In this document: positions 16,575-38,936 of the stretch, piece by piece
Layout of the letters: each line of letters starts with the position of its first letter
Position numbering within the stretch: position 1 is the stretch's first letter
Assembly (NCBI GenBank): GCA_947177465.1
Contig: CAMWUP010000001.1
Coordinates: forward strand, 1 to 42,078
Reading direction: 5' to 3'
Source of the DNA: an uncultured Lachnospiraceae bacterium
GTDB taxonomy: Bacteria; Bacillota; Clostridia; Lachnospirales; Lachnospiraceae
Length of the DNA: 42,078 nt
Made by a program: the position numbers and the translations under genes
Notes under the pieces: generated by a model
What the model was told of the DNA's origin: nothing
The model's database searches: none
The model's input: only the letters and a program-made list of their open reading frames with translations

Positions 16575-16577
16575 TAG

Positions 16578-18019: not shown

Positions 18020-18133
18020 CGAGGTAAAGTCGTATATTGGTAATTGTACAAGCGGACTTGCGCAAATGAAAGGGGTAACTTATGTTGAACAATAGCAATG
18101 AATATAAAGAGGCGCTTAAGGAGGCGGTAAATA

Positions 18134-19243: not shown

Positions 19244-19494
19244 GAATTGGTTTTACCAGAATAGCACGAGAAGAATGCATGAGAAAATATAATTTATCAG
19301 CAGAAAGTAGAAAGCGAATTGTTTACAAAAAAGAATGAAAGCCGGTAAGGATTTAGGAAGGGGAGAAGTCTTTATCTATCTGCCCGGGGAAATGTTCTTC
19401 AATCTGCTCCTCAATGCGGAAAGCCTTATCTAAGGGGCGGTAAATGATAAACATTGCCAGAAACAGTATATACCAGACGCCCAAAACCGGTACA

Positions 19495-20376
19495 AATCAG
19501 TCGGCACTGTACGGCACCTCATGGGAACTGCCTATTATCCTGCCCGTCACAAACGAGGCCGGCACGATAACGAAATATTTCTTCTCCATCTCTCCGGCTC
19601 CAGCCAGCATTGCCGATAATAAAGTATATTACTGGGTGGGAGATTTCGATTTGGAGACCGGAAAATTTACGCCGGACGAGGGTTTTGAGGGAGAACCGCA
19701 TATGTTGGATTACGGCGCTAATGTGTTTACTGGTCCCAGTTGTCTTGTGGACCCCGTCAGCGGCAATATCTATATGTTCAGTATTATGCAGGACCAGCGT
19801 GGAGCGGCAGAGCAGGGTGCTTCGGGATGGGCGCATACGGCAGGCATCGCCAGAAGAATCTGGCTGAATGATGAAGGAACCGACCTTATGATGGCGCCTA
19901 TTGAGGCGCTGCACAGCCTTGAGAAAGAGGTTCTCATCAATGAGACAAATCTTACCCTTGAAGCTGCAAACAGCCTGCTTGCAAATATTGATGAAGATAT
20001 GCTGTATATTAAGCTTACTGTAGATATAAGCGAGGCGGCGGAGTTTGGCATCAGTCTGAAGCAGGGAGGCAAATGGGATGCCACCACCTACACCTATAAT
20101 GTAGCCGGCGAAACAATACAAGGGCGTACGGAGAACAAGGGCGAAGGCGCCGGTGTCAGCACTGTCAGCGGTGCTTTGCCGAATGAGGATGGCACAATTT
20201 CTATAGAGATATATGTTGACCGTTCGCTGGTTGAGGCGTTTTTTAATGATTACAAGGCAATCAGTATCCGCGCTTATACTGATGACCCCGATTCCCACGC
20301 GATGAATCTGTTTACAGAGGGAAATGTGACGATAGAGAGTCTCTATGTGGCAGTTATGGGGTCTATTTATGAATAA
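19495..20376 (+). pseudogene. 5'-truncated GH32 (beta-fructosidase/fructanase) C-terminal part
   Basis: WELP variant of the EC motif, DYG, IYVDRSLVEAF beta-sandwich; NDPN and RDP motifs absent; left boundary approximate. Confidence 0.75.
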
Positions 20377-20388
20377 AACAAGTTTATT

Positions 20389-20419
20389 GCCTGATGGGAC
20401 GGAAACGGTTCCATCGGGC
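20389..20419. other. Intergenic hairpin between the GH32 genes
   Basis: GCCTGATGGGAC/GTTCCATCGGGC stem, no T tail. Confidence 0.45.
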
Positions 20420-20432
20420 TCTGGAGGTAAAA

Positions 20433-23825: not shown

Positions 23826-23859
23826 AAGCCGACAGCTCTGAATTCACTGTCGGCTTTCA
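23823..23859. terminator. Hairpin terminator
   Basis: Perfect 13-bp stem TGAAAGCCGACAG/CTGTCGGCTTTCA. Confidence 0.7.
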
Positions 23860-23870
23860 AAGGGGACCCG

Positions 23871-23997
23871 CTCCTTCATAGCTCTCAGGGGTCCCGGCAT
23901 ACACCAAAAGCGCTTGTAGAATTCTGCGAATCAGTTCATGTGACGCAAAGCATGAGCAAAACAGGATACCCGTCTGACAACGCGCCGATGGGGAGAT
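23871..23997 (+). mobile_element. IS3-family transposase remnant (integrase core fragment)
   Basis: Reads LLHSSQGSRHTPKALVEFCESVHVTQSMSKTGYPSDNAPMG, a degenerate HSDQGSQY...QSMS..G.P.DNA..E. Confidence 0.8.
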
Positions 23998-24063
23998 CTA
24001 TGGTCAAATCGACCAAAATAATCCTAGATAAAACTTCAAAAACTGTTATATTTTTTTGATAAT

Positions 24064-24094
24064 AATTGACAAGCTACTTGTCAATTGATACAAT
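24064..24094 (+). promoter_or_regulatory. Island promoter with overlapping operator palindrome
   Basis: TTGACA(24066)-17-TACAAT(24089); perfect AATTGACAAG-CTA-CTTGTCAATT at 24064-24086. Confidence 0.75.
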
Positions 24095-24110
24095 ACAAGA
24101 TAGATAAAAT

Positions 24111-24168
24111 ACTAAAATAAACTAAAATAAGCGTTATGAAAAATATAGCTTGAAGATATAGCTTGAAG
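24111..24168. repeat. Two short tandem duplications
   Basis: ACTAAAATAA x2 (24111-24130); ATATAGCTTGAAG x2 (24143-24168). Confidence 0.85.
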
Positions 24169-24271
24169 AAGTCTTTCACAAACCAAATTTAGCAGGAAAG
24201 TAGGTTTGAGTAGGCAAACGATATCTTCTATCAAAAGAGGTAGTGTGAATCTGTCGTGGAATAACTACTTA
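24167..24271 (+). pseudogene. Decayed XRE/Cro-C1 HTH regulator
   Basis: Reads RSLSQTKFSRKVGLSRQTISSIKRGSVNLSWNNYL; in-frame TGA immediately upstream, no usable start. Confidence 0.7.
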
Positions 24272-24281
24272 GGAGGACATT

Positions 24282-26933
24282 ATGAAGTACAACGGATTGA
24301 ATGATAGCGAAGTAAAGGCTTCAAGAGAGAAATATGGAATCAATGCGATTCCGGATTCGGAGCCTACTACGTTTTGGGAGGCTTTTAAAGAAACCTTTGA
24401 GGATCCGATGATAAAGATTCTTTTAGTAATTGCAGCGATTATGATAGGAATGTTTTTGATTGGATATGCAGAAATATATGAGCCGGCAGGAACAATAGTT
24501 GCGGTATTGATTGTTGCATTTGTATCTGCAAAAACAAGTGTTGCAAGTGATACAAAGTATCGTGAATTAAAATATAGTAATAAGAAAGATACATGTAAAG
24601 TGTATAGAAACGGATTGGTTACTGTCATCGAGGTTGACGATGTTGTTGTTGGCGACAAGGTGCTGTTGCAATCTGGAGATAAAATACCGGCTGATGGTAT
24701 TTTGGTTGATGGCGACTTGCGTGTGGATAATTCTGCATTGAATGGTGAAGCAGAAGAATGTAAGAAGCATGCAGCAGTTGGCGAAGTAGAATTAGCAGAT
24801 GAAATAACAGGAGACACTTTTGTTGATAAACATTCTTTGTTTAGAGGAGCAGTTGTGTTTGACGGCGAAGGTATCTTGGATGTTAGAAAAGTTGGTTTAA
24901 TGACAATGATGGGAAAAATGGCAGAGGAAATGCAGAATGATGAGCCGGATTCCCCGTTGAAGGTTAAATTAAGTAAATTAGCAGGACAGATTTCGACATT
25001 TGGATATATCGGGGCGGTTGTTATTGCAATTTTGTATATGATATTCTTTGTAGTTAATGCCGGTGGAATATCGGAATATATGGCAACAGGCTGGACAACT
25101 ATTTTAAAAGATTTAGTTGAAGCGGTTTCATTAGCGATTGTAATTATTGTATGTGCAGTTCCGGAAGGATTGCCATTGATGATTTCTCTGGTTCTTATGC
25201 AGAATACAAGCAAGATGTTAGATCATAATGTATTAGTAAGGAAAGCTGAAGGTATAGAAACAGCAGGTTCGCTTAATATATTGTTTAGTGATAAGACCGG
25301 TACAATTACCAAAGGAATGTTAGAGGTGGTTGAATTCTTCACAGCTGAAGGAGATACTGTTCCTTTTTCCCAGTTGAGAGATCATGGAAAAGTAAAAGGA
25401 TTGTTAGATTTAGCAATTGGCAAAAATACAGCTTCAATGTATGACGGAGAACATAAGGTGATTGGCGGTAATGCTACGGATCAGGCATTAATGAAGTTTA
25501 TTGGTGAAGATACATATTCTATGTTGGCATCAAATAAAGATTTGGCAGTTAATATGTCACAAGGATTCAATTCTGCAAATAAGTTTAGCCAGGCTGAAAT
25601 AAAGAGTTTAGGAAAAACATTCTATAAGGGTGCGCCGGAAAAATTTTTGGCTATAGCTAAACGGGCACTTGATAAAGATGGCAATGTGATTGACTTGAAT
25701 TATGATGAATTGAATAACAAGATTAATGAATTGGCTTCAAGAGCAATGCGAGTATTAGCTTTCGGATACTCCGAAAGAGATTTAGTGGAAAATGAAATCA
25801 ATGATGATGTTGTAATCATTGGTTTGGTAGCAATTAGGGATGATGTAAGACCTGAAGCTAAGGATGCAATCAAAGAGGTTCAGGAAGCTGGTATTCAGGT
25901 AGTGATGATTACCGGCGACAGATTGGAAACAGCGATTTCGATTGCAACTGATGCAGGTTTGATTAAGTCAAGCAAGGATAAGGCATTAACGTCGGCTCAG
26001 TTGAATGAAATGAGCGATGATGAAATCAAAGAAATTGTAAGAGATATTAGAGTTATTGCAAGAGCTTTGCCCACAGATAAATCAAGGATGGTAAGAATTT
26101 GTCAGGAAATGAACTTAGTTGTAGGTATGACCGGAGACGGTGTTAATGACTCTCCTGCGTTGAAGAGAGCTGATGTAGGTTTTGCTATGGGTAGTGGAAC
26201 TGAAGCTGCAAAAGAGGCAGGCGAAATTGTTGTTCTTGATGATAATTTCAAATCAATTAAAGATGCAATTTGGTATGGCCGTACGATTTATCACAACATT
26301 TTGAAGTTTTGTAAGTTCCAGCTCGTGATAAATGTGGCGGCGGTAGTGGTAAGTGCAATCGCACCGTTCTTTGGTGTGGAAGAGCCTTTGAAAGTAACGC
26401 ATTTACTTTTTGTAAATCTTGTTATGGATGGCTTGGGAGCTATTATGCTGGGTAATGAACCTGCACTTGAGAAGTATATGAAGGAAGCGCCGAGAAGAAG
26501 GGATGAGAGCATTGTAAGTAAGAAAATGATGGCTCAGATCGTAACAATGGGATTTTGGCTGACAATCTTAAGTTTTGCATTCTTAAAAATGCCATTCTTT
26601 AATAACTTCTTTGATACAGAAGAACAAAAGCTTACTGCTTATTTCGTATTATTCATTGTTAGCGCATTATTTAATGGATTTAATGTTAGGGACGACGGAT
26701 TTGGAATATTTAAGGGATTGAATGAAAATACCGGTTTCTTGAAAGTATTCTTTACAATTATCTTAGTTCAGTCGTTGATAGTAAATGCTGGTTTAGTGCC
26801 TTTTCTTGGTTGGCTCGGTAAGATGTTTGGCTGTGTGCCATTTGGTATTGCAGGCTGGGGCATGGTAGTTCTTCTTGCAGTTACTATGATACCGATAGAT
26901 ATCTTGAGAAAAATGGTAGTAAAAAGCAAATAA
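24282..26933 (+). CDS. Calcium-translocating P-type ATPase (PMCA-like, type II)
   Basis: VPEGLPL, DKTGT, KGAPE, MITGD, TGDGVND, VNLVMD. Confidence 0.93.
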   Translation: MKYNGLNDSEVKASREKYGINAIPDSEPTTFWEAFKETFEDPMIKILLVIAAIMIGMFLIGYAEIYEPAGTIVAVLIVAFVSAKTSVASDTKYRELKYSNKKDTCKVYRNGLVTVIEVDDVVVGDKVLLQSGDKIPADGILVDGDLRVDNSALNGEAEECKKHAAVGEVELADEITGDTFVDKHSLFRGAVVFDGEGILDVRKVGLMTMMGKMAEEMQNDEPDSPLKVKLSKLAGQISTFGYIGAVVIAILYMIFFVVNAGGISEYMATGWTTILKDLVEAVSLAIVIIVCAVPEGLPLMISLVLMQNTSKMLDHNVLVRKAEGIETAGSLNILFSDKTGTITKGMLEVVEFFTAEGDTVPFSQLRDHGKVKGLLDLAIGKNTASMYDGEHKVIGGNATDQALMKFIGEDTYSMLASNKDLAVNMSQGFNSANKFSQAEIKSLGKTFYKGAPEKFLAIAKRALDKDGNVIDLNYDELNNKINELASRAMRVLAFGYSERDLVENEINDDVVIIGLVAIRDDVRPEAKDAIKEVQEAGIQVVMITGDRLETAISIATDAGLIKSSKDKALTSAQLNEMSDDEIKEIVRDIRVIARALPTDKSRMVRICQEMNLVVGMTGDGVNDSPALKRADVGFAMGSGTEAAKEAGEIVVLDDNFKSIKDAIWYGRTIYHNILKFCKFQLVINVAAVVVSAIAPFFGVEEPLKVTHLLFVNLVMDGLGAIMLGNEPALEKYMKEAPRRRDESIVSKKMMAQIVTMGFWLTILSFAFLKMPFFNNFFDTEEQKLTAYFVLFIVSALFNGFNVRDDGFGIFKGLNENTGFLKVFFTIILVQSLIVNAGLVPFLGWLGKMFGCVPFGIAGWGMVVLLAVTMIPIDILRKMVVKSK

Positions 26934-27049
26934 GATACAGATTGAACCGTGTAAGTTCAATTTGAATTACAACAATATGGCAGCGTTAATTGCAAGAGCG
27001 CTGTTAATAACGGATGTATATCATTATTTTACTAAAGGAGGAAGCAGTT

Positions 27050-27670
27050 ATGGGAATTAATCTGCAAAAAGGACAAAAAATTGATTTAACAAAGAATGGT
27101 GGAACCGGATTGAGACAAGTGATGGTAGGTCTTGGCTGGGATGAAGCGCCTCGTTCAGGTGGCGGATTTTTGGGGGGATTGTTTGGTTCGCAGCCACAGC
27201 CTATTGATTGTGATGCATCTGTAATTTTATGTGGAGCTAATGGAAGAATTGTATCAGGTGATGCTTCACAGTGTTGTGTATATTTTGGTAATTTGAGACA
27301 TTCTAGTGGAGCTATTGTGCATCAAGGTGATAACTTGACCGGAGCCGGCGAAGGAGATGATGAGCAGATCATGGTTAATTTGCAGAAAGTCCCATCAAAT
27401 ATAGATAAAATGGTATTTGTTGTTAACATTTACGATGGTCATGCTCGTAACCAGCATTTTGGAATGATTAGAAATGCATTTATCAGATTGGTTGATATGG
27501 ATAGCAGAACAGAGATTTGCAGATTCAATCTTTCTGAGAACTACAATAATATGACTGGTCTTGTTGTAGGCGAGATTTACAGAAAGAATGGAGAATGGAA
27601 ATTTAATGCAGTTGGACAGCCTGTTCAGGAAGCAAGTAGGTTAGAATCATTAATTCAATTATACAGATAG
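27050..27670 (+). CDS. TerD-family protein (TerZ/YceC-like)
   Basis: INLQKGQ, VGLGWD, GDNLTGAGEGDDE, GEWKFNAVG. Confidence 0.93.
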   Translation: MGINLQKGQKIDLTKNGGTGLRQVMVGLGWDEAPRSGGGFLGGLFGSQPQPIDCDASVILCGANGRIVSGDASQCCVYFGNLRHSSGAIVHQGDNLTGAGEGDDEQIMVNLQKVPSNIDKMVFVVNIYDGHARNQHFGMIRNAFIRLVDMDSRTEICRFNLSENYNNMTGLVVGEIYRKNGEWKFNAVGQPVQEASRLESLIQLYR

Positions 27671-27682
27671 GAGGAGTTTATT

Positions 27683-28267
27683 ATGGCAATTAGTTTAACA
27701 AAAGGACAGAGAGTTTCATTAGACAGTTCTATGAAGTTAGCATTGGTAGGTCTCGGCTGGGATACGAACAGATATGACGGTGGACATGATTTCGACCTTG
27801 ATGCATCAGCGTTTTTATTAGGTGAAAACGGAAAACTTATGCGAGATGAAGACTTTGTTTTCTATAATAATCTCAATGGCAGAGATGGTGCAGTTGTTCA
27901 TACTGGTGATAATACAACCGGTGCTGGAGACGGCGATGATGAAGTTATTTATATTGACTTTACCAAAATTCCTAATGATGTAAAGAAAATTGCTATCGTT
28001 GTCACAATACATGATGCAGAGGCTCGCAGACAGAACTTTGGTCAAGTGTCAAATGCTTATATCAGAATTGCTAAGAGATCAGATGAATTTGATGAAGTTG
28101 GTGAACCGGTTCTTAAGTTTGACCTTGAAGAAGAATTCTCTATTGAGACAGCACTTGTTGTTGCTGAAATATATGAGAAGAATGGCGAGTGGAAGTTTAA
28201 TGCTGTGGCTGCTGGATATCAGGGCGGTTTAGAAGCAATTATTCGCTCATTCGGTGGAAACGTATAA
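27683..28267 (+). CDS. terD: TerD-family protein
   Basis: GLGWD, FDLDASAF, FVFYNN, GDNTTGAGDGDDE, QNFGQV. Confidence 0.92.
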   Translation: MAISLTKGQRVSLDSSMKLALVGLGWDTNRYDGGHDFDLDASAFLLGENGKLMRDEDFVFYNNLNGRDGAVVHTGDNTTGAGDGDDEVIYIDFTKIPNDVKKIAIVVTIHDAEARRQNFGQVSNAYIRIAKRSDEFDEVGEPVLKFDLEEEFSIETALVVAEIYEKNGEWKFNAVAAGYQGGLEAIIRSFGGNV

Positions 28268-28297
28268 TTTGTTTTTACTGGAAAAGGGGTGAATTAG

Positions 28298-29596
28298 TTG
28301 AAAGAGTTTTCTAGAGGACAAAGAATTAGAGTGGCTTCCGGTGGGGAACTTGAAGTTCTTCAAAAGCTTGGTGAAGGTGGTCAAGGCGTTGTTTATAAAG
28401 TTACCTATAATGGTAAAGAGTTAGCTCTTAAATGGTACTTTGGTAATAAATTGAATGACGCTGACAGATTCTATCGTAATATTCAAAACAATATCAAGAA
28501 GGGAGCGCCGACAAGTGCATTTCTGTGGCCCTTGGAAATAACAGAGTATTTTGAAGGCAGCTTTGGCTACTTGATGGAACTACGTCCGCCGGAATATAAA
28601 GATTTTTCGTTGTTTTTATTAGCGAGAGCAAGATTTGCCAGTATTTCAGCTGTAGTTAATGCTGCTTTGAGTATCACTAATGGATTTAGAGAATTACATA
28701 ATTCGGGATTTAGCTACCAGGATTTGAATGATGGTAACTTTTTCGTAAATCCAAAAACAGGAGACGTGTTGATTTGTGATAATGATAATGTTGCCGAGTA
28801 TGGTGATGCATTAGGTATAGCAGGAAAATGTAGATACATGGCACCGGAAGTAGTTATGGGAAAAAAGAAACCGGATGTCCACACTGATAGATTTTCGTTG
28901 GCAGTTGTATTGTACTTGCTTCTGTTCTTAAATCATCCATTAGAAGGAAAAAGAACAATGTGTCCGTGTCTGACTGAGGAATTGGAGAGAAAGTTTTATG
29001 GAACAGAGCCAGTATTTGTTTGGGATCCGGCTAATGATACCAATAGACCAGTTCGAGGCGTTCATGTTAATGAAATCAAATTTTGGCCGATATATCCAAA
29101 ATTTGTAAGAGATACGTTTGAAGAAGCGTTCAGTAATGCTGCAATGGTGGGAGCGGATACGCAACATCGAGTAACTGAGAAAAAATGGCAGGAAGTATTT
29201 ACTGCCTTGCGTGATTGTTTAGCTATATGCACCTGTGGCGGAGAAACTTTCATTGATGTGAAAGAATCATCTTGCAAATGTATTAACTGCGGCAAAGAAA
29301 TCCAAAGACCAATGGTAATGAAGGTAAAAAAATATCATGTTGTAATGCAGCCACAGAAGAAGATATATGCGTGTCATGCAGTACATGATAGTGATGAGTT
29401 TAGAGAAGTTAAAGGTGAGGTTATCGCAAGTAGACAAGATCCTTCACTTGTAGGATTGAAGAACAATTCGGATAATAGTTGGACTGCTATTCTTCCGAAT
29501 GGAACGACTAAAACATATACAAATGGTCAGGTAATTAAACTTGGCAGAGGATTGAAGATTAATTTCGGCAATAGTAATGAAGCAGAAATTTATTAA
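28298..29596 (+). CDS. Ser/Thr protein kinase (TerY-P triad type) with C-terminal Zn ribbon
   Basis: GEGGQG, ALK, YQDLNDGN, DNDN, YMAPE, DRFSL; CTC...CINC. Confidence 0.9.
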   Translation: MKEFSRGQRIRVASGGELEVLQKLGEGGQGVVYKVTYNGKELALKWYFGNKLNDADRFYRNIQNNIKKGAPTSAFLWPLEITEYFEGSFGYLMELRPPEYKDFSLFLLARARFASISAVVNAALSITNGFRELHNSGFSYQDLNDGNFFVNPKTGDVLICDNDNVAEYGDALGIAGKCRYMAPEVVMGKKKPDVHTDRFSLAVVLYLLLFLNHPLEGKRTMCPCLTEELERKFYGTEPVFVWDPANDTNRPVRGVHVNEIKFWPIYPKFVRDTFEEAFSNAAMVGADTQHRVTEKKWQEVFTALRDCLAICTCGGETFIDVKESSCKCINCGKEIQRPMVMKVKKYHVVMQPQKKIYACHAVHDSDEFREVKGEVIASRQDPSLVGLKNNSDNSWTAILPNGTTKTYTNGQVIKLGRGLKINFGNSNEAEIY

Positions 29597-29615
29597 AAGA
29601 AAGTGAGGTTTACGG

Positions 29616-30371
29616 ATGGGTTTATACGATGAAGTAGTAGAAGTACCTAGAAGAACGATGGTATTGTTCTTTGTGGTTGATACGTCAGGTAGTATGACTG
29701 GTGCAAAGATAGGAACTGTTAATTCAGCAATCGAAGAAATTATACCGGAATTAAAAGATATTTCAGAATCTAATGCAGATGCGCAGATTAAGGTAGCAAC
29801 ATTAGTATTTTCTACAGGGGCACATTGGGTAGATAGTGCTCCGGTTGCCGCTGAAAATTTCAGATGGAATTATTTAGATGCAAATGGTGTAACTGACTTG
29901 GGAGAAGCATGCATGCAGTTGAATGAAAAATTATCAAGAAACGCATTCATGAGTGATGCAACTGGTTCTTTTGCTCCGGCTATTTTCTTGATGTCAGATG
30001 GCGAACCAACTGATAATTACAAGTATGGATTAGAAAAATTAAAACAGAATAATTGGTTTAAAAAAGCAATCAAAGTTGCAGTTGCAATTGGTGATGATGC
30101 AAATAAGACAGTATTAGCAGATTTCACAGGTAACATTGAAGCAGTAATTACTGTACATACGCCAGAAGCACTCAAGAAATGGATTCAGTTCGTAAGCGTT
30201 CGTGCATCAGAAATTGGAAGTAAGAGTTCAAATGCAGGAACTGGTTCAAGCGATGCCGGTTCAGAAATAGTAAGTAAGCAAGATGAGTTTATTAAAGAAA
30301 TTAAGACTCAGACAGAAACAGCGGAAGCTGCTGAGTGGGATTCCTTTGATGATGATGGTATGGTTTGGTAA
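29616..30371 (+). CDS. terY: TerY-like vWA domain protein
   Basis: DTSGS MIDAS, GVTDLGEA, SDGEPTD, AVAIG. Confidence 0.88.
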   Translation: MGLYDEVVEVPRRTMVLFFVVDTSGSMTGAKIGTVNSAIEEIIPELKDISESNADAQIKVATLVFSTGAHWVDSAPVAAENFRWNYLDANGVTDLGEACMQLNEKLSRNAFMSDATGSFAPAIFLMSDGEPTDNYKYGLEKLKQNNWFKKAIKVAVAIGDDANKTVLADFTGNIEAVITVHTPEALKKWIQFVSVRASEIGSKSSNAGTGSSDAGSEIVSKQDEFIKEIKTQTETAEAAEWDSFDDDGMVW

Positions 30372-30385
30372 AGGAGGGAATTGCT

Positions 30386-31738
30386 ATGAATGCAAAATCC
30401 TTCAATTTATCAGTTCAGGGAGCCAGTCACATCAAGAAAAACAAAGAATGTCAAGATGCGTCAAGAAGTTATAGTGATGAAAATATAGCACTTGCCATAG
30501 TTTGTGATGGACATGGCGGCGATGATTATATGCGTAGCGCAGTTGGGTCAATGTGTGCTTGCAGCGCGGCTGAAAGAAATATAAAGAGTTTTTTGGAGAA
30601 CACAAGCAAAGAGGCTTTCTTTGCAGGTCCGGAAAAATTACTGAATAATTTAGAAGCTAGCATTATAAATGTGTGGAATCAATTAATATATGCACACTAT
30701 GAGAAGAATCCTTTTTCAGAGTCAGAATTAAGCGGAATATCGGAAAAGGCCAGAAAGAAGTATGTAGAAGATGAACGTATTGAAAGTGCATATGGTACTA
30801 CACTGATTGCTGCAGCTATGACACATGAGTATTGGTTTGGTATTCACATCGGCGATGGAAAGTGCGTTGCAGTAAATCAGGAAGGTAAGTTCGTACAACC
30901 GATACCTTGGGATCAAAAATGTTTTTTAAATGCAACTACGTCAATTTGCGATTCTGATGCTTTAAGCAGCTTTAGGCACTTTTATTCTGAAAAGTTGCCC
31001 GTTGCTGTTTTTGTTGGTTCAGATGGTATAGATGATTGTTTTAGTAATAATGAGCAATTGCATAATTTGTATAAGACAATTCTGTATTCATTTGGGACAT
31101 CTGAATTTAAAGAAGCGTTAGATGGATTGAAAGATTATTTGCCACGCTTGTCTGCCAAAGGCAGTGGAGATGATGTCTCTATTGCAGCTGTGTTGGATTT
31201 TGATTTAGTTCCAGAACTGGAAGTAGTAAAAGAATTTGATCGAGATAAAGAAAAAGCACGTGTTGAAGAAAAAGCGCGTAAAGAAGCAGAGAAGAATGAA
31301 GCAGAAAAAAGAAGAGTAGAGCAAGAGCATGCACAATTCCAACGAGAAAATAATTTTCGGGGAAAAACCGAAAATAAGCCGAAGTTTTGTACTGAGTGCG
31401 GTGCTAAACTCTCGGAGGGGAATAAGTTTTGTAGTGAGTGTGGCGCAAAAATTGTACCAGTTGCCGGAAAGGTTGAACCAAACAATGGTAATAGACAGAT
31501 ACAATTATTTCCTATAAAGCGTTATCAGAGTGAAAATACTACGGAAACTGTAGAAGGTACTCAGGTAGTAGAAGATAAGTCTGCGGATGTTAATAATTTG
31601 AATACAGACAAAAATGCCATAGCGGATGAAAATGTGAATAGTGAACAGCAAGAAGAATCTTGTGTAGAAACTAGTAGCATAGAAGATGACCTTGTTTCTA
31701 AGGAAATTACGGATGATGTTCAAACTTTTGGACAATGA
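30386..31738 (+). CDS. PP2C-family phosphatase with coiled coil, double Zn ribbon and acidic tail
   Basis: CQDA, CDGHGG, GTTL, IGDG, SDG, DDVS; FCTECGAK..FCSECGAK. Confidence 0.9.
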   Translation: MNAKSFNLSVQGASHIKKNKECQDASRSYSDENIALAIVCDGHGGDDYMRSAVGSMCACSAAERNIKSFLENTSKEAFFAGPEKLLNNLEASIINVWNQLIYAHYEKNPFSESELSGISEKARKKYVEDERIESAYGTTLIAAAMTHEYWFGIHIGDGKCVAVNQEGKFVQPIPWDQKCFLNATTSICDSDALSSFRHFYSEKLPVAVFVGSDGIDDCFSNNEQLHNLYKTILYSFGTSEFKEALDGLKDYLPRLSAKGSGDDVSIAAVLDFDLVPELEVVKEFDRDKEKARVEEKARKEAEKNEAEKRRVEQEHAQFQRENNFRGKTENKPKFCTECGAKLSEGNKFCSECGAKIVPVAGKVEPNNGNRQIQLFPIKRYQSENTTETVEGTQVVEDKSADVNNLNTDKNAIADENVNSEQQEESCVETSSIEDDLVSKEITDDVQTFGQ

Positions 31739-31820
31739 AGAGACGGTAACTGAAGTAGAAAATTCGGAAAATAAGGTTGTCGGAATTTTGGCAGAAGAAA
31801 TAATTCAAGAAACACAGAAA

Positions 31821-31855
31821 GCAGATATATCTATTTCGATATATCTGCATTTTTT
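31821..31855 (+). terminator. Intrinsic terminator-like hairpin inside the island
   Basis: GCAGATATATC-TATTTC-GATATATCTGC followed by ATTTTTT. Confidence 0.65.
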
Positions 31856-31870
31856 GATATGGTGAAAATT

Positions 31871-33445
31871 ATGAGATGCCCAAAATGCGGAAAAGAGCGT
31901 AATGAATCAAACTCCATTGCCAATCATGCATATATATGTCCATCTTGCGGCGACAGTTTTAGCGGGGCTGGAAACGATAGAGAAGATATAAAAGAGATAA
32001 TTAAAAAACTAGTAGAACAATATGGAGTTGAAGTTTTAGAAAATATTAATAGGATGAATGCGTTGTTAATGGATTATGCGCCGCATTCTGACAAGGAAAG
32101 AAAATTAGTAGTAATGGTTATGCGGGAAGGAATTGTTACTCAGTTAATGAAAGCTGCTGATGAAAATGAAAATATTCAAAAGCTAAAAATAAATAGATGC
32201 GTAAATCAACTGGTAGAAAGTATTTGGATTACTGAAACTGCTGCAAAATATGCAGTATCAGTTTTAGCAACTGCAATAGGTATAAAATTTGGTGTTGATA
32301 TCAATGACCAGGCAGTTGAAGAACAGCATGATTTGGCGGGAAAAGTATCAAATAGCACTGAGAAAATACTGACAAAAGAGGATAGAGTTACCTCAGAAGA
32401 CGCAATTCAGTATGCATTAAAGGATAGCGCTGCCATTGGATATAAAGCGTTTGCGGCAAATTCGAGTATTAAGCATTTGGTATTGCCAAAGAATGTTAGA
32501 GCTGTATATCCCAAAGCATTTTTGAATTGTATTAATCTGAGCAGTATTACATTACCAAGAGAGATAAAGAGTATAGGAATATGTGCTTTTGAAGGATGCA
32601 GCTCTCTTACGAAAATAGAAATTGCTGATGGTCAATATTATAGAGTGATAGAAGGCGTATTGATTGACAAGATTAATAAAAAAGCATTGAGAGTTGAAAA
32701 TGACGCCAGCAAAGAAAAAGTAAATATAGTTAATGGTGTATTAACGATATGCAAGAAAGCTTTCGACCGTTGTCCGGTAAAATGCATAGGTATTCCAACA
32801 TCGGTTGAATACATAGAAGAAAATGCTTTCTTTTTGACACAAAATTTAGAAAGGTTCGAAGTAGATTCAAAGAACACAAATTTTAAGGTATATGACGGTG
32901 TTTTGCATAATAGAGCTGCTTCGATACTTGTAAAGTATCCGCAGGGAAAGAAAGATATTGGTTATTATTTGGAAGATACTGTGAAAGAAATCGGAATGCA
33001 GGCATTTAGCTGCGCACAAAACATTCAAACAATTACATTTAACAGTTCTTTAAAAATAGTGGGAAATAGGGCGTTTGAATATTGCACCAATATAGAAAAT
33101 ATAATGTTGCCAGGAAATGTAGAAATTATAGGCGATAGAGCATTTCAATATTGTGAAAAAATGCGAAGTGTAATGTTGTCTGTAAATATTCAGGAAATAG
33201 GCGATTCTGCATTTTACAATTGTATCTCATTAGAAACTATCAGTATTCCAAAGAATGTTAGAAAGATTGGCAATTTGGCATTTACCAATTGCAATAAATT
33301 GAAAACGATAACAGTACAAGAAAATATAGCGTTTGTGGGTGATGGAGCTTTTGCCGGTTGCGAAGGTGTTGTGATATTAATAAAAAATAATCCCTATATG
33401 GAAACGTATTGTCGTTCCAGAGGAATTAAATTTACCAATATATAA
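31871..33445 (+). CDS. Zn ribbon + helical domain + BspA-type leucine-rich repeat protein
   Basis: CPKC..CPSC N-terminus; repeated I.LP..V..IG..AF..C..L units; no signal peptide or TM seen. Confidence 0.88.
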   Translation: MRCPKCGKERNESNSIANHAYICPSCGDSFSGAGNDREDIKEIIKKLVEQYGVEVLENINRMNALLMDYAPHSDKERKLVVMVMREGIVTQLMKAADENENIQKLKINRCVNQLVESIWITETAAKYAVSVLATAIGIKFGVDINDQAVEEQHDLAGKVSNSTEKILTKEDRVTSEDAIQYALKDSAAIGYKAFAANSSIKHLVLPKNVRAVYPKAFLNCINLSSITLPREIKSIGICAFEGCSSLTKIEIADGQYYRVIEGVLIDKINKKALRVENDASKEKVNIVNGVLTICKKAFDRCPVKCIGIPTSVEYIEENAFFLTQNLERFEVDSKNTNFKVYDGVLHNRAASILVKYPQGKKDIGYYLEDTVKEIGMQAFSCAQNIQTITFNSSLKIVGNRAFEYCTNIENIMLPGNVEIIGDRAFQYCEKMRSVMLSVNIQEIGDSAFYNCISLETISIPKNVRKIGNLAFTNCNKLKTITVQENIAFVGDGAFAGCEGVVILIKNNPYMETYCRSRGIKFTNI

Positions 33446-33544
33446 GAAATGTTCTCAATCGAGAGTCAATCAGGGATTCAGCAGGAGTTTATCAAGGTTT
33501 ATTGCTACTGGAAATGGATAAACGAAATGGGAGTGTGAGGTAAT

Positions 33545-34615
33545 TTGAAAAACGAGAGATATTACTATGGGATAATGTCAATGGAAGAGAAGAAAGCATA
33601 TAAAATGGTGTATGATGGGTTGAAAATGCGCGCTTTTAACATTGTAGTATCGTTATACCTTCGCCCTGAACAAGTGCAGGAAATATATCTTAAAGTGCTG
33701 TACGACAATCCATTATTTTTTTATATTAACCAAACAGTTATTAAAATGACCGGAGAACCGGGATATTGGATTCTGTTACCGGAGTATTTGTTTGCAAATA
33801 GAGAGATAACGACGATTACAAATGATATTCATAGGATTGTTAATAAAGTTGCTGTGAAAGCACAAACAATGCGTTCAAATGAATTTAGACTCGAAAAATA
33901 CTTACATGATACCGTAGTAAAAAGCGTAGCGTATGATTACGATGCATTGAAAAAGACAGATTGTTTTAACGCACATTCCATAGTGGGTGCATTTCTGGAA
34001 AATAAAGCAGTATGCGAAGGGATTGCAAAAGCGTTTAAACTGTTATGCAATGAGTTTGGAATAAAGTGTATTGTTGTGTTGGGGAAAGTAAATAAAGAAG
34101 GAGATTTTAGTGGCGACGATTACCATGCATGGAATTTAGTTAAGATTGGTAATGAGTCATATCATGTAGATGTTACATGGGATAATTTATATGATACAGA
34201 TATTCGTCATATTAGTTACGATTATTTTAACGTAACGACGAAGGATATTCTATTGGATCATCAGCCCCTTGAGGATAATCTTCCAATATGTAATTCTACG
34301 AGGCTGAATTACTTTTATAGCACAAAGAGCTTTGTGAGTACATACTCGGAATTGGTGGAATTAATATTTACCCGCTTTAATGCGAAGGAGATAATGTTTC
34401 GGGCAAGTAAAGATAAAGGTGAATTTCAGTTGGCGGATGAATTGAAAGAGAAAACGGTTACAGCATTAATGCATGTAATGTTCACAAAAGGTAATATTAA
34501 GCCTTTTGCATTGATGTTTAATGAAATACATAACATCGCTAAAATTGTATTTGTGCCTAAAGAGAAGATGAAAATAGATTTGGTTAAACATAATATTCCT
34601 TTGCAAGGAACATAA
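33545..34615 (+). CDS. Transglutaminase-like (papain-fold) protein
   Basis: AVCEGIAKAF (Cys), HAWNLV (His), VDVTWD (Asp). Confidence 0.88.
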   Translation: MKNERYYYGIMSMEEKKAYKMVYDGLKMRAFNIVVSLYLRPEQVQEIYLKVLYDNPLFFYINQTVIKMTGEPGYWILLPEYLFANREITTITNDIHRIVNKVAVKAQTMRSNEFRLEKYLHDTVVKSVAYDYDALKKTDCFNAHSIVGAFLENKAVCEGIAKAFKLLCNEFGIKCIVVLGKVNKEGDFSGDDYHAWNLVKIGNESYHVDVTWDNLYDTDIRHISYDYFNVTTKDILLDHQPLEDNLPICNSTRLNYFYSTKSFVSTYSELVELIFTRFNAKEIMFRASKDKGEFQLADELKEKTVTALMHVMFTKGNIKPFALMFNEIHNIAKIVFVPKEKMKIDLVKHNIPLQGT

Positions 34616-34659
34616 GATTGCTGCGATTGATTGGAATGGCAAGAAGGAGAAGATAAATA

Positions 34660-35412
34660 ATGTATACATGGTTCACAGATTTAGATAATACATTGATTTA
34701 TTCTCATAGAACCTCGTTTACCCAAAAAAAAGTACTTGTAGAGTATTTGAGAGGAAAAGAGCAAAGTTATATGACACAAAAGACTTATAACTTTATGTGT
34801 GGTAACAACATTCAGTTTATTCCTATAACGACAAGGAGTGTAGAACAATATAAAAGACTGTTCGTATTTGGGAAAGAAATTAAGGTTAGACATGCACTGG
34901 TCTGTAATGGGGCTGTTTTATTGGAAGATGGAAATCCTGACGAAGAATGGACTAACGAAACGAAGGTGATTGCGCAAGAAGGAATCCATGCTGTATCAAA
35001 GATTCAAAAGGATTTATCTGAATATAACGTCACTAATGTTGAAGGGATAATGCTGTATTTCAAAACGGATAAACCAATAGAAGCTGCAAATATACTTCGC
35101 AGCAAATATGCGGAACAGAAAGTATACATAGGATTTGATAAGAGAAAGGTATATATTGTGCCTTCTGAAATGAATAAAGGAAGTGCAGTACATCGTTATT
35201 GCAATAGATATGGAATAACTAAAACGGTTTCGTCTGGCGACAGTGAATTTGATATATCCATGCTTGAAGCTACAAACGTATGTATGTGTCCCAACACTTT
35301 ATTGGGCCGATTATGTTCAGATTCAAAGAAATATGCAATGGGAGATAATCAAATCATTTCAGATGATATATGCGAGCGATTAAAGATTATTATTGAGGAG
35401 AACAAATTATGA
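34660..35412 (+). CDS. HAD-superfamily phosphatase (Ter-associated)
   Basis: DLDNTLIYS, TTRS, NG, NKG, GDSEFDISML. Confidence 0.9.
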   Translation: MYTWFTDLDNTLIYSHRTSFTQKKVLVEYLRGKEQSYMTQKTYNFMCGNNIQFIPITTRSVEQYKRLFVFGKEIKVRHALVCNGAVLLEDGNPDEEWTNETKVIAQEGIHAVSKIQKDLSEYNVTNVEGIMLYFKTDKPIEAANILRSKYAEQKVYIGFDKRKVYIVPSEMNKGSAVHRYCNRYGITKTVSSGDSEFDISMLEATNVCMCPNTLLGRLCSDSKKYAMGDNQIISDDICERLKIIIEENKL

Positions 35413-36374
35413 ACTTAAAAAAAGAATGCTATGAGGTAGGGGCTTTGCTCTACGCCCCTGCGTTAAATGATACTGTTGTAAAATCAATTGTGAATGAAAA
35501 ATTCGGTAATAAATATTCAATGGCATTTTGTTTGGAAGATACAGTATCGGATGCTGCAGTAGATGCTGCAGAAAGGCAATTAGTTGATACATTAAGACAG
35601 ATACACTGTGCTTGTAAGACGAAAGAGTTCTATTTGCCTATGATATTTATCAGAGTGAGAGAGCCGGAACAAATACTTAGACTAATGAACATGTTGAATG
35701 ATTCAACGGAGATTTTGACGGGATTTATATTTCCTAAGTATTCATTGGACAATGCTAAGAGTTACAACGATATTATGAAAAATATTAATATGTCCAGTGA
35801 TAGAGTGTATTATATGATGCCTATTTTAGAGAGTAAGGATATTATTGACTATGCTACAAGAAAAGAAATATTACTTCAGATTAAAGAGCATGTTGACGAG
35901 GTAAAAGAATATGTTCTTAACGTTAGAGTCGGTGGTAATGATTTCAGTAATGAATTTGCAGCCAGAAGGCATTACGATCAAAGTATATATGATATAAAAC
36001 CAATTGCTAATCTGCTGGGAGATATCCTGACTGTATTTTATAGGGAATACATTCTGTCAGGACCGGTATGGGAATTCTTTTCCAGTGATAACAATGAATG
36101 GAAAGAAGGTTTAATTAAGGAATTAGCTTTAGACAGATTAAATGGTTTTGTGGGAAAAACAGTTATACATCCAAAACAAATTGCGGTTGTTAATGAAGCA
36201 CTTAAAGTATCTCGAAAGGATTATGAGGATGCCAAAGCGATTATGAATTGGGATGATAAAAATTCTATGTGTGTGTCAAAAAGCTTTGGCGGAGAGCGAA
36301 TGAATGAATTGAAGACACATGGAAACTGGGCGGCAAAAACACTTATATTGGCAGAAGTATATGGAATAAACTAA
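35409..36374 (+). CDS. HpcH/HpaI aldolase / citrate-lyase-like C-C bond lyase (Ter-associated)
   Basis: GALLYAPA, CLEDTV, FIRVR, MPILES, RVGGND, GKTVIHPKQ, MNELKTH.NWA. Confidence 0.9.
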   Translation: MNLKKECYEVGALLYAPALNDTVVKSIVNEKFGNKYSMAFCLEDTVSDAAVDAAERQLVDTLRQIHCACKTKEFYLPMIFIRVREPEQILRLMNMLNDSTEILTGFIFPKYSLDNAKSYNDIMKNINMSSDRVYYMMPILESKDIIDYATRKEILLQIKEHVDEVKEYVLNVRVGGNDFSNEFAARRHYDQSIYDIKPIANLLGDILTVFYREYILSGPVWEFFSSDNNEWKEGLIKELALDRLNGFVGKTVIHPKQIAVVNEALKVSRKDYEDAKAIMNWDDKNSMCVSKSFGGERMNELKTHGNWAAKTLILAEVYGIN

Positions 36375-36392
36375 TAGAAATGAGAGTGTGTG

Positions 36393-37523
36393 ATGTTTGA
36401 GATTGAGCAACTAGTAAATTTGGCAAAGAGAGAAAACAATTCAAAAAGGTCATATCTTTATGTGAATCCTTTACAAGGAAAACATATTCCTGTGAATCCT
36501 TGTCACACAAAAGAAATGTGTAAAGCCCTTGCTGGTGAAGTGGCAAAACGATATTCAAAAGAAAAACTGTTTATTATAGGATTTGCTGAAACTGCGACAG
36601 CAATAGCAGCGTATGTTGCAAGTTTTTTGGATAACGCTGTGTACATCGAAAATACAACTAGAGAGAAAGAAATAGAGGGTGAAGAATACCTGTATTTTAC
36701 TGAATCACATAGTCATGCTACGGAACAAAAAATAGATGCAAAATGGTTTGACGACTATCTATTTATGGTTGATAGAATTGTGTTTGTGGAAGATGAGGTA
36801 ACTACAGGAAATACGATTTGTAAATTGATAGCAGAGATTAAATCTAAATTTCCGAAGAAAAAAATATGTTACTCGATTGCCGCTATATTAAACAGCATGT
36901 CAAATAAAAGGGTTCGGGAGTTATATAGCGAGGGTATAGATTGCTTTTTCCTCAGAAAGATATCATTTGAATATAAAGCAGAAACGATTAATGCATATGA
37001 AGATAAAGATGCATGTATGCAAAGTTGCCTTGAAGATTCATATAATAATTTATTTAATATAAATAAAGTTGTTGGAGGAGTAAATCCAAGAAAAACGTGC
37101 AAAGTTGACGACTTTATTATGCGAACAAATCATTTCTGCACATATATATATGAGAAAGAATTTAAAAATAATATATTTGATGAAATCTTGGTAGTTGGAA
37201 CGGAGGAGTTTATGTATCCGGCGATTGAACTGGCAGGATATTTACAGGAAAGAAGGGTGTGTAAAGAGATAAGAACACATTCTACAACTCGAAGTCCGAT
37301 TATGGCATTTAGTAATGAAGAGTATCCGCTGCACAATCGTCACAAACTTATAAGCGTGTATGACGATGCGCGTGTAACATATATATATAATTTGAAGAAA
37401 TATGATAAGGTGATAATTGTGACAGATTCAGAGCTGACATCGTATAAAGGTTTAAGAAGTCTGATGTCGGCTTTGGAGAAGGTAGGAAATAACGATATCT
37501 CTGTATATCAATGGAGCGTTTAA
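36393..37523 (+). CDS. Phosphoribosyltransferase with TRSP domain (Ter-associated)
   Basis: GKHIP, IGFAETATA, HSHATEQ, VEDEVTTGNT, GTEEFMYP, TTRSPI. Confidence 0.9.
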   Translation: MFEIEQLVNLAKRENNSKRSYLYVNPLQGKHIPVNPCHTKEMCKALAGEVAKRYSKEKLFIIGFAETATAIAAYVASFLDNAVYIENTTREKEIEGEEYLYFTESHSHATEQKIDAKWFDDYLFMVDRIVFVEDEVTTGNTICKLIAEIKSKFPKKKICYSIAAILNSMSNKRVRELYSEGIDCFFLRKISFEYKAETINAYEDKDACMQSCLEDSYNNLFNINKVVGGVNPRKTCKVDDFIMRTNHFCTYIYEKEFKNNIFDEILVVGTEEFMYPAIELAGYLQERRVCKEIRTHSTTRSPIMAFSNEEYPLHNRHKLISVYDDARVTYIYNLKKYDKVIIVTDSELTSYKGLRSLMSALEKVGNNDISVYQWSV

Positions 37524-37524
37524 A

Positions 37525-38574
37525 ATGAGAAGTACATATAACGAAGAGGATGTAACTTTACTACTAAAGGATATATCCGGTTTGGTTGAGCCGTTAGAAG
37601 CCAAAGAACGGGAGAAGTTAATACAAGCAGGAACTCATTATTGTGAGATGTTGCCGATGGAATATAAGCCATCAGAGAAGTACATAGAAATATACAACAA
37701 AGGGTTAAGTATATTTGCCCAATCTACTGCTGATGCAGTAGCAAGGGTTGCTGAGGATATATATAGGAACAAAGGGCAGAAGGTTGCAATAATCTCGCTT
37801 GCAAGGGCAGGAACATCAATAGGAGTGCTGATTAAGCGTTATCTGAGAAACAAATATAATATTGACGTTGCTCATTATTCTATTTCGATTATTAGAAATA
37901 GAGGCATTGATAAAAATGCAATGAATTACATATTAGAGAGACATTCTGGTACAGATTTGCAATTTGTAGATGGATGGGTGGGGAAGGGAGCTATCTTTAA
38001 TGAATTAGTAAATGCTTTGAAAGATTTTCCAAATGTGGATAGTTCTCTTGCGGTTTTGGCAGATCCTGCTAAAGTTACTGCTTTGTGCGGAACACATGAA
38101 GATATACTTATTCCAAGTTCATGCCTGAATAGTACCATTTCTGGATTGATAAGCAGAACCTTTTTAAGAAAAGATATTATAGAAGAAACAGATTTTCATG
38201 GAGCAGCTTTCTATTCAGAATTGCGTAACGAAGATAGAACATATGAGTTTATTGGTATGATAGAAAAGTGTTTCAAATATGATTTGGTTAGTATTGAGCA
38301 TACTGTTGATAAAAGTGGAATTAATGAAGTTGAAAGACTTAAGAATATATATCATATTATCAACGTGAATTTAATAAAACCAGGGATTGGTGAAACAACA
38401 AGAGTATTGTTACGAAGAGTTCCGTCGAAGGTATTAATTGCCGAGGACTATAAAGATTCCATTGAGTTAGAGCATATTATTCAACTTGCAAAAGAGAAGG
38501 AGGTTGATATAGAGTATGGTCGACTGAATAGCTATAAATGTTGTGGAATAATTAAAGACTTAGCAGATGCGTAG
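37525..38574 (+). CDS. StiP-like PRTase-fold protein with PELOTA RNA-binding domain
   Basis: HYCEMLP.EY, SLARAGT.IG, FVDGW.GKG, LIPS..LNST.SGL.SR, KPGIGETTRVLLRRVP. Confidence 0.88.
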   Translation: MRSTYNEEDVTLLLKDISGLVEPLEAKEREKLIQAGTHYCEMLPMEYKPSEKYIEIYNKGLSIFAQSTADAVARVAEDIYRNKGQKVAIISLARAGTSIGVLIKRYLRNKYNIDVAHYSISIIRNRGIDKNAMNYILERHSGTDLQFVDGWVGKGAIFNELVNALKDFPNVDSSLAVLADPAKVTALCGTHEDILIPSSCLNSTISGLISRTFLRKDIIEETDFHGAAFYSELRNEDRTYEFIGMIEKCFKYDLVSIEHTVDKSGINEVERLKNIYHIINVNLIKPGIGETTRVLLRRVPSKVLIAEDYKDSIELEHIIQLAKEKEVDIEYGRLNSYKCCGIIKDLADA

Positions 38575-38590
38575 GAGGTAATGATAATAA

Positions 38591-38842
38591 ATGAAGTTTA
38601 GTATTGTAAAGAATGATAAGAGTACATATTGGGATGAGGTAATATTAGGGTTAATGTCCTTCGGCGGTTTGGCGATTGGAATTATGTTGATTATATTAAA
38701 GCCAAGTTTTTGGGTTATTGACTCAAGTTTATTTGTTGTGTTTGGAGTACTGATAGCAATGTTGGGATTTATGTTTGCGCCATGTTTCATATATAGACTT
38801 TTGACTAATGATAAAAAGAATTCGAATAAGAAATCTTCATAA
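38591..38842 (+). CDS. Small two-TM membrane protein
   Basis: Two hydrophobic stretches, basic tail, AGGAGG RBS. Confidence 0.75.
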   Translation: MKFSIVKNDKSTYWDEVILGLMSFGGLAIGIMLIILKPSFWVIDSSLFVVFGVLIAMLGFMFAPCFIYRLLTNDKKNSNKKSS

Positions 38843-38850
38843 TGGAAAGG

Positions 38851-38888
38851 TGGGAGAGCACCAACACCATCCGGTCAGTGCTCTTCCA
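38851..38888. terminator. Hairpin between convergent operons
   Basis: TGGGAGAGCAC/GTGCTCTTCCA stem, long loop. Confidence 0.4.
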
Positions 38889-38936
38889 AGTTAAATACAT
38901 CTTCAACCAGTAGATTAAACCGGCAGAATGAAACTG

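Follow-up and report, generated by a model that had tools for sequence, protein, structure and literature searches.

A hybrid Ter-type island from a Lachnospiraceae bacterium, with predicted docking of a helical domain of its LRR protein on the metal site of a TerY-like vWA protein

Background

Bacterial Ter stress-response systems are recognised by a recurring set of features, comprising TerD, TerC, TerB or TelA/YceG, a biosynthetic module and an ATP-grasp enzyme, and by their association with tolerance to tellurite, colicins and phage. Among the closest described relatives of the locus reported here is the TerY-P triad of Anantharaman, Iyer and Aravind (2012), which, as portrayed in the excerpts of PMC11090510 and PMC4978471, shares with our locus its three components (vWA protein, PP2C phosphatase and kinase) and the zinc ribbon of the kinase; relatives of our locus add the TerY-C and WXG/FtsK genes that have also been published for the triad. 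So far as those excerpts go, our locus differs in its gene order, kinase-vWA-PP2C, and in that a repeat protein bearing a helical domain (HD) is nearly always added and a transglutaminase often. The stand-alone anti-phage TerY-P system of Gao et al. (2020), as cited in the excerpt of PMC11090510, likewise holds vWA, PP2C and kinase in one operon, its kinase ending in an OB fold where ours, compared by sequence, terminates with a zinc ribbon together with a beta-rich domain. With the effector-associated domains (EADs) and the GAP1-N2 kinase/PP2C/vWA neighbourhoods of Kaur et al. (2020), in the part of PMC7159879 consulted, the loci described here have in common a small helical domain carried on variable repeat or surface domains in several copies per locus, together with a kinase-zinc ribbon-beta-rich domain protein, a PP2C and a stand-alone vWA. 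They differ from the EAD systems of that excerpt in that our island has no GTPase or MoxR core, no Pfam match to HD, no HD seen on a core protein, and a predicted coupling that is heterotypic and runs through a MIDAS.

We report the computational analysis of an island in the genome of an uncultured Lachnospiraceae bacterium, within a window that is the whole 42,078-nucleotide stretch of DNA studied (contig C1). The genome is 72.85% complete, and the named genomes nearest to it come from the gut and are of Lachnospiraceae and Ruminococcus type. We read the island as a hybrid in which an LRR protein is predicted to dock, through HD, on the metal site of the vWA protein and is likely the sensor of a kinase-phosphatase switch, a reading to which we assign a probability of about 0.55. 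In the literature covered, no description of the island architecture or of an HD-TerY contact was found, though Anantharaman 2012 and Gao 2020 may already record some of the links, and the part of PMC12839542 consulted makes no mention of TerY, PP2C or transglutaminase.

Results and Discussion

Extent and composition of the island

ORF calling on the window confirmed the thirteen co-oriented + strand genes of the first-pass annotation (24282-38842; Table 1), and a GC check agreed with its remark that they are AT-richer than their flanks: GC content is 0.359 over 24000-38860, against 0.471 and 0.469 (about 0.47) on the two sides and 0.465 in the whole genome, where 4 of the 281 windows of 5 kb fall below 0.37. 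The adjoining IS3 scar is likewise present, though its rve match is weak (E 0.022, below cut-off), and no attachment-like repeats were found at the island ends. The gene-family calls of that annotation were also borne out by Pfam/NCBIfam, which assign a PMCA-type Ca2+ ATPase, two TerD proteins, a Ser/Thr kinase, a vWA protein, a PP2C with zinc ribbon, LRR_5, Transglut_core, HAD, C-C_Bond_Lyase, PRTase_2-TRSP and StiP-PELOTA_1 and leave the 83-residue ORF without a family. Catalytic residues are intact in the kinase, the vWA MIDAS, the PP2C and the transglutaminase. PADLOC returned generic kinase and PRTase matches only, a result to be read with the fact that it also missed the canonical plasmid TerY control. 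Parts of the island are contained in four gut DNA runs, in which no single piece spans it, and no RNA run was listed as containing it.

Table 1. Features of the island and its left edge (window coordinates, 5' to 3')
Feature	Position	Strand	Remarks
IS3-like integrase-core remnant at left GC boundary	23856..23972	+	weak rve match E 0.022, below cut-off; frame read
Putative sigma70-type extended -10 promoter-like site upstream of pump	24066..24094	+	11/12 consensus; best site of scan; total number of sites no greater than in shuffled controls
PMCA-type Ca2+ P-type ATPase, 883 aa	24282..26933	+	DKTGT and PEGL motifs; TIGR01517 537.6 bits, cut-off 507
TerD paralog 1, likely start 27050	27014..27670	+	PF02342 E 9e-69; ribosome-binding site ahead of 27050
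TerD paralog 2	27683..28267	+	PF02342 E 9e-74; PDB 2KXT E 1e-62; acidic GDNxTGxGDGDDE loop retained
Ser/Thr kinase, zinc ribbon, beta-rich C-terminal domain	28298..29596	+	K45, D142, N147, D161 intact
TerY-like vWA protein	29616..30371	+	complete MIDAS (D22, S24, S26, T93, D128); predicted HD-binding site
PP2C phosphatase carrying a coiled segment and a zinc ribbon, start probably at 30386	30365..31738	+	catalytic aspartates invariant
Conserved terminator-like hairpin between PP2C and LRR genes	31821..31848	+	13 aligned copies; both-side changes in 6/13 pairs
Zinc ribbon-HD-BspA-type LRR protein, 528 aa, start probably at 31871, cytosolic by prediction	31859..33445	+
HD, ~105 aa, seven helices (aa 40-142); near-invariant Asp72 at 32072-32074	31976..32284	+
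Transglutaminase-fold cysteine enzyme, 356 aa	33545..34615	+	C157, H194, D209 invariant in 35 homologues; PDB 9CRN E 2e-24
HAD phosphatase	34660..35412	+	Pfam/NCBIfam
TIM-barrel C-C bond lyase	35409..36374	+	PF15617 E 7e-102
PRTase_2-TRSP	36390..37523	+	Pfam
StiP-family domain with PELOTA_1	37525..38574	+	Pfam
Two-membrane-helix protein, 83 aa	38591..38842	+	no family; homologues 49-54% identical, same place in loci L021 and L022

The terminator-like hairpin has no Rfam match. It was considered as a site of cassette recombination, an idea dropped on finding one copy per locus only, and it separates the LRR gene from the triad, an arrangement that counts against the mechanism proposed below.

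Two modules that usually occur apart

Judged by sequence, the island belongs to the TerY-P triad family, as each of the three components that define it is present: the vWA with its MIDAS, the PP2C and the kinase-zinc ribbon protein; the vWA is 32% identical to plasmid TerY and has the metal site in the form D22-x-S24-x-S26, T93, D128. The beta-rich C-terminal domain of the kinase has no significant sequence match in Pfam or the PDB, and neither the FHA nor the OB fold, both of which were considered, could be assigned to it on these grounds. A family search for TerY_C in the window genome was blank, as were its controls, and tblastn with the TerY-C of a relative also found nothing.

With the kinase as seed, matches were found in 15 of 400 genomes of the family and in 1 of the 398 other genomes of the class that were scored (2 more were unscored). 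Amongst the 17 kinase loci of these 16 genomes, a vWA gene accompanies the kinase in 17, PP2C in 16, HD in 15 and the transglutaminase in 12, one of these last lying some 38 kb off, beyond an inserted conjugative element, and being connected to its locus through contigs of matching length. TerD is present in only 3 of the 17. In a quick kinase tree (locus L179 omitted as a duplicate of L020, together with four second-copy or fused kinases) the TerD-linked kinases fall in one clade of 15 rows, 13 linked to TerD and 2 not, which is consistent with a single fusion followed by spread between families.

The other half of the island is ordinary for the family. The Ter-system features that it holds are the TerD paralogs and the HAD/C-C lyase/PRTase-TRSP/PELOTA-fused module, and its Ca2+ pump is up to 80% identical to the pumps of TelA/YceG-type Ter loci. 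The C-C lyase is found in 40 of the 400 family genomes, 4 of which also hold an island-type kinase, with both genes in one locus only in G743. Of the 41 remaining lyase matches, G743 being left out, we read 20 that were picked for the length of their contigs: TerD is present in 16, the Ca2+ pump in 12, TelA-like and YceG-like genes in 14 each and ATP-grasp in 2, and none of the 20 has HD, kinase, vWA, PP2C or transglutaminase. A Ca2+ pump, TerD and nucleoside-like enzymes are thus the ordinary Ter locus of this family, TelA and YceG normally following TerD. With this common locus (Ca2+ pump, two to four TerD genes, TelA, YceG and biosynthetic genes) the island shares pump, TerD paralogs, C-C lyase, PRTase-TRSP, StiP-PELOTA and HAD; it differs in that TelA, YceG and YceG-trypsin are absent, the HD/TerY-P cassette stands after TerD, and all genes are co-oriented. 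The cassette occupies the slot where TelA and YceG usually stand.

The first-pass annotation had stated that TerB, TerC, YceG and TelA are absent from the window, and this now extends to the window genome, at its 72.85% completeness, and to three relatives with the same island type that are 97-99% complete: TerC (PF03741) gave no match in these four genomes, and TerB, TelA and YceG gave none above cut-off, with positive controls in both cases. One sub-threshold TerB match, containing a stop, was seen in G452. The island is a Ter-type locus in which TerC, TerB and TelA are wanting. A Ter-type ATP-grasp is also missing from it; of 27 close loci that carry HAD or lyase, 24 have such a gene, as do only 2 of the 20 TelA-type loci, and the nearest match in the same genome is 24% identical and lies inside a polysaccharide cluster. 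We rejected the absent ATP-grasp as a sign of decay, given its presence in only 2/20 TelA-type loci within the stretch read.

The island is, then, a hybrid of an ordinary pump/TerD locus and a kinase-vWA-PP2C-LRR cassette, modules that also occur apart; in other places the cassette follows BREX, neighbours Esx-like toxin genes or stands by itself. The halves mostly occur separately, so that a single integrated pathway of thirteen genes is not borne out; a pump beside TerD is commonplace in the family (12/20 sampled loci). The window represents a compact form, without the TerY-C, AIM24, ATP-grasp and Esx-like genes of many relatives, an absence on which the first-pass annotation did not remark; in fuller relatives the first three of these are accompanied by a zinc peptidase and by an FtsK/EssC-WXG block whose toxin-like domains vary.

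Within the cassette the association of HD with the kinase is strong: across the 400 family genomes the kinase is found in 15, HD in 13 and both in 12 (Fisher p 2e-19, a value overstated by the non-independence of kin), and the thirteenth HD genome, G476, has a truncated HD copy behind brxL, with no vWA match. In a second family HD is present in 22 of 250 genomes; of the 23 HD loci read there, one of them a second locus in the centre genome, the kinase is present in 20 and vWA with PP2C in 17, counts that are not independent as these cassettes are largely one lineage, with kinases of 67% median identity. Three of the six second-family loci without vWA are contigs of under 5 kb, and the genomes of the other three hold a close vWA elsewhere. 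In G113 a vWA gene stands with two HD genes, no kinase or PP2C being present in the 20 kb read; G113 also has one orphan HD gene. This vWA-HD-HD locus and the vWA genes found elsewhere in the three long-locus genomes suggest that HD follows vWA; the orphan gene of G113, the truncated HD of G476 and the loci L238 and L241 described below count against the docking reading. Elsewhere, a Prevotella plasmid has two HD genes near a TerY-C-kinase-vWA-PP2C block and a Planctomycetia MAG has one HD, while the 30 kb read around the terY block of a Klebsiella plasmid gave no HD match.

The transglutaminase-fold enzyme, which from its fold is probably a protease or deamidase, is an optional member of the cassette, present in 12/17 kinase loci and 3/23 second-family loci; no paper associated with its PDB match, 9CRN, was found. 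Using it as seed we collected 133 loci (80 from genomes and 53 from metagenomes), of which 52, forming 28 clusters at 90%, are at least 50% identical. A flank of 3 kb or more is available for 39 of these closer loci, every one of which holds a further island or accessory gene; HD is found in 16 of the 18 dereplicated clusters whose upstream sequence reaches 3 kb or more, an Esx-like block filling the 10 kb read in the other two. Amongst the distant homologues with flank, the triad stands beside 5 of 70, the same 5 having HD, and nine stretches from same-genus genomes around homologues of 27-37% identity hold no island genes nearby; because of these nine and the 65/70 without triad, we do not regard the wider transglutaminase family as Ter-linked. 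It had been proposed that the LRR and transglutaminase genes join the Ter modules in one locus. Their recurrent linkage to TerY-P genes, which persists at kinase identities as low as about 40% and extends to the Planctomycetia MAG, upholds that part of the proposal which an absence of such linkage would have refuted; the other part is revised, the two genes belonging to the kinase-vWA-PP2C cassette and not to the TerD core.

A helical domain and its predicted docking site

The new element of the island is HD, an uncatalogued domain of about 105 residues, by sequence, at the N-terminus of the LRR protein, which has the architecture zinc ribbon, HD, LRR; the first two parts had been missed by the first-pass annotation. 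As that annotation held, the LRR protein and the transglutaminase are predicted to be cytosolic, their N-termini having neither signal nor membrane helix by hydropathy. HD (residues 40-142) is predicted to form seven helices (pLDDT 91.6). There was no Pfam match across 23 members and no Foldseek match at E 0.001, the best VIA hit being a designed repeat protein (Z 7.7 over 56 residues, rmsd 1.3), and an Atlas search with a homologue as query returned only unnamed clusters, the best at 0.91. Death-like and EAD identities were considered, with no match from Pfam or Foldseek for either.

The HD profile recovers 4,623 protein clusters at E 0.001 and 655 at 1e-10. In the 105 that were scanned for partner domains, out of 150 HD proteins listed, HD is mostly N-terminal to LRR_5, Sel1, DUF6273, RCC1, MORN, Lcl_C, SH3, solute-binding, YARHG and other domains, and many have no family; none of the 105 carries a kinase, vWA, PP2C or transglutaminase domain, and no core gene in the loci read carries HD. 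Many HD proteins also have membrane helices and surface domains. HD probably links interchangeable sensors to the kinase-phosphatase switch.

An aspartate is the sole invariant column of the HD alignment, an observation that preceded any modelling of complexes; it suggested a MIDAS ligand, and a complex of vWA, HD and Mg was therefore chosen for modelling. The model scored 0.80, against 0.38 for the best control; the control that retained HD still scored 0.38. The mark for docking is reached by 116 of 157 solved complexes against 2 of 215 mismatched pairs, a calibration that is only approximate here, the input having included a Mg ion and alignments of our own; one pair was modelled. Contact agreement between runs was 100% and the partner pLDDT was at least 88. 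In the model Asp35 of HD (Asp72 of the LRR protein) contacts S24, G25, S26 and T93 of the vWA; the same position is Asp in 155 of 158 domains, and the interface columns of HD are better conserved than the rest (0.55 vs 0.35, p 0.014). The model thus supports binding in which Asp72 is predicted to complete the vWA MIDAS. In known MIDAS-ligand pairs, such as those of the integrin I domains, an acidic side chain of the partner completes the metal site, and this binding mode is well solved and common amongst solved vWA complexes; the docking pass may reflect likeness to such complexes. Set beside the integrin I domain pairs, HD would differ in being a dedicated cytosolic docking domain common to a repertoire of receptors.

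Proposed mechanism and its alternatives

In the hybrid-island reading the LRR would bind a cytosolic stress or invader ligand, docking of HD on the vWA would shift the balance between kinase and PP2C, the pump and TerD would set the divalent-metal level that gates this docking, and the outputs would be the transglutaminase-fold enzyme and the nucleoside-like pathway. Other hosts would swap the sensor, HD being fused there to Sel1, MORN, RCC1, DUF6273 or membrane-anchored surface domains. The layout of an LRR sensor and a kinase/phosphatase switch that was suggested in the first annotation fits the linkage and the intact motifs. Most HD cassettes have neither TerD nor pump, and the 23 second-family loci have no TerD, BrxL or EssC match within the stretches read, so that neither calcium gating nor defence is general to the cassette. 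A stronger form of the proposal, which we regard as possible but less likely than not, makes HD the missing input of TerY-P: its Asp would enter the TerY metal site, modular cytosolic LRR or Sel1 proteins and membrane receptors would share one switch, and pump and TerD would gate the contact, giving a calcium-controlled receptor kinase system resembling innate immunity.

A possible but not favoured alternative, compatible with the docking, is that the island acts mainly against phage, as a TerY-P system: a phage protein would be recognised by the LRR, the kinase would be triggered, and infection would be halted by the transglutaminase-fold enzyme or the small molecule. HD-LRR-kinase-vWA-PP2C-transglutaminase relatives lie directly after BREX brxL in 4 of the 17 kinase loci, as does the HD remnant of G476; the BREX-linked kinases, however, belong to a different clade from the island kinase in the quick tree, and BrxL is found in 0/23 second-family loci. 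In the excerpt of PMC11090510, which cites Gao 2020, stand-alone anti-phage activity is reported for TerY-P-like modules whose kinase has an OB fold, but the kinase tail of the island could not be assigned to that fold from its sequence. HD-SF1 helicase fusions in two loci, a vWA-TIR fusion in another and the patchy distribution of the kinase (1/398 class and 15/400 family genomes) are further contextual hints of defence, against which no defence gene was recognised beside the island within 13090-41850.

It is unlikely that HD is an adaptor for the kinase, the phosphatase or other HD copies, in the manner of EADs, and not for the vWA. A small, all-helical domain that is fused to variable domains, is multi-copy and is sometimes tandem would suit such a role, and the second-family HD-LRR gene stands directly before the kinase; at two loci (L238 and L241) TerY-C, kinase and an HD-Sel1 protein are encoded together and no vWA gene adjoins them. 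Yet no core component was seen fused to HD, the window genome has a single HD copy, the vWA model passes with the invariant Asp placed in the MIDAS, and the vWA-HD-HD locus has no kinase. Judged by fusion, with no HD seen on its core proteins, the island is not an EAD system, though it would work like an adaptor-coupled receptor system.

We give a similarly low weight to the proposal that the cassette controls the export of Esx/type-VII-like toxins or general cell-surface signalling, the window being a reduced copy from which the export genes were lost. Many relatives have, between their LRR and transglutaminase genes, an FtsK/EssC-like ATPase, WXG-like proteins and a variable set of domains of the deamidase, ADP-ribosyltransferase or HNH type, the ATPase being present in 15 of the 43 loci read, and the membrane helices and surface domains of many HD proteins would accord with this role; TerY-P with WXG/FtsK is already published in the part of PMC4978471 consulted. 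Such genes are, however, absent from many complete loci (L020, L025-L029, L105, L125 and L128) and from all 23 second-family loci, and although contigs C93 and C252 of the window genome bear some, the EssC there shows only 37% identity and a GC content like that of the host.

That this is an ordinary metal/tellurite tolerance locus with the LRR and transglutaminase genes as passengers is highly improbable: 9 of the 13 genes represent families with a long-standing connection to Ter loci, and the combination of pump, TerD and lyase is common in the family, but TerC, TerB and TelA were not found in the four genomes and the idea is largely refuted by the linkage counts, the triad being kept beside both genes over the range of kinase identity given above and into the Planctomycetia MAG, and flanked by HD genes on the Prevotella plasmid.

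Conclusions

On the hybrid-island reading, two modules that usually occur apart are joined, the HD cassette standing behind the pump and TerD genes, and the replacement of TelA and YceG by the HD cassette suggests that modules are interchangeable at a single slot of the Ter locus. According to the part of PMC12880540 consulted, gut jumbo phages encode terD genes that are highly transcribed and a Ca2+ pump of a related class, which hints that this axis is relevant in infection and is not evidence on the island itself. For the partner of TerY and the signal input of TerY-P, the literature covered offers only a hypothesised metal-sensing switch, where the island offers a named candidate partner and a single residue. 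If the predicted contact is true, HD would mark thousands of unannotated receptor-like proteins, and one coupling rule would tie together the Ter, BREX-linked and Esx-linked cassettes.

Neighbourhoods of the related cassettes

The cassette of HD-LRR (HD, a seven-helix domain of about 105 residues), kinase, vWA, PP2C and transglutaminase genes lies directly 3' of the BREX gene brxL in L186, L187, L189, L191 and L213, the last of which retains only a truncated HD gene. A conjugative element directly 3' of PP2C parts the kinase-vWA-PP2C triad from its downstream genes in L180 and L214. Related cassettes also include HD-SF1 helicase fusions, a vWA-TIR fusion and a gene of radical-SAM type that matches the viperin profile weakly. 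In L226 the kinase and phosphatase are absent from the 20 kb that hold the vWA and HD genes. A conserved protein of about 170 residues, which has no Pfam match and no homologue in the window, recurs in Ter-, BREX- and Prevotella-type HD cassettes.

In the common Ter locus of the family, YceG is fused to trypsin in L266 and 10 similar loci; a rhomboid gene is additional in five of the 20 Ter loci sampled.

EssC/WXG-like genes outside the window, and further features within it

Away from the window, two contigs of its genome carry an EssC-like ATPase, WXG-like genes and the linked membrane protein, at a host-like GC of 0.478. In L021, L100, L115 and L181 the FtsK/EssC ATPase is accompanied by small, probable immunity genes and by WXG-like proteins whose variable domains are of deamidase, ADP-ribosyltransferase or HNH-like type. 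Within the window there is a second, milder low-GC patch (14937-19216), and the intact 511-aa GH32 gene is directly preceded by a 310-aa GH32 gene that lacks the N-terminal part.

Coordinates of the features discussed (L, related locus; C, contig of the window's genome, G000)
Feature	Location
AAA_14/DUF4143, two GNAT and nucleotidyltransferase-domain genes	window 14937-19216
GH32 pair	window 19444-21929
Hairpin after PP2C	window 31821-31848
EssC-like ATPase, WXG-like genes, linked membrane protein	C93:3283-7639; C252:1143-4124
FtsK/EssC ATPase, WXG-like proteins	L021:892-6023; L100:1623-6914; L115:1520-7619; L181:862-5933
TerY-like vWA, radical-SAM-like fragment, HD-Sel1, HD-LRR	L226:6859-10847
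HD-SF1 helicase, vWA-TIR, radical-SAM genes	L191:10325-13852; L189:1874-3556; L217:4647-6434; L192:17368-18447
Conserved ~170-aa protein	L021:7706-8221
YceG-trypsin fusion	L266:9055-10503

A conserved hairpin after PP2C

Conserved in position across at least 13 related loci, the hairpin following PP2C varies in its loop and shows compensatory changes, with 97.6% of cells paired, a value equalled by none of 500 shuffles, although such a control can be beaten by related sequences. Immediately 5' of several copies, part of the left arm recurs as a direct repeat. The element is a candidate terminator, processing site or operator.
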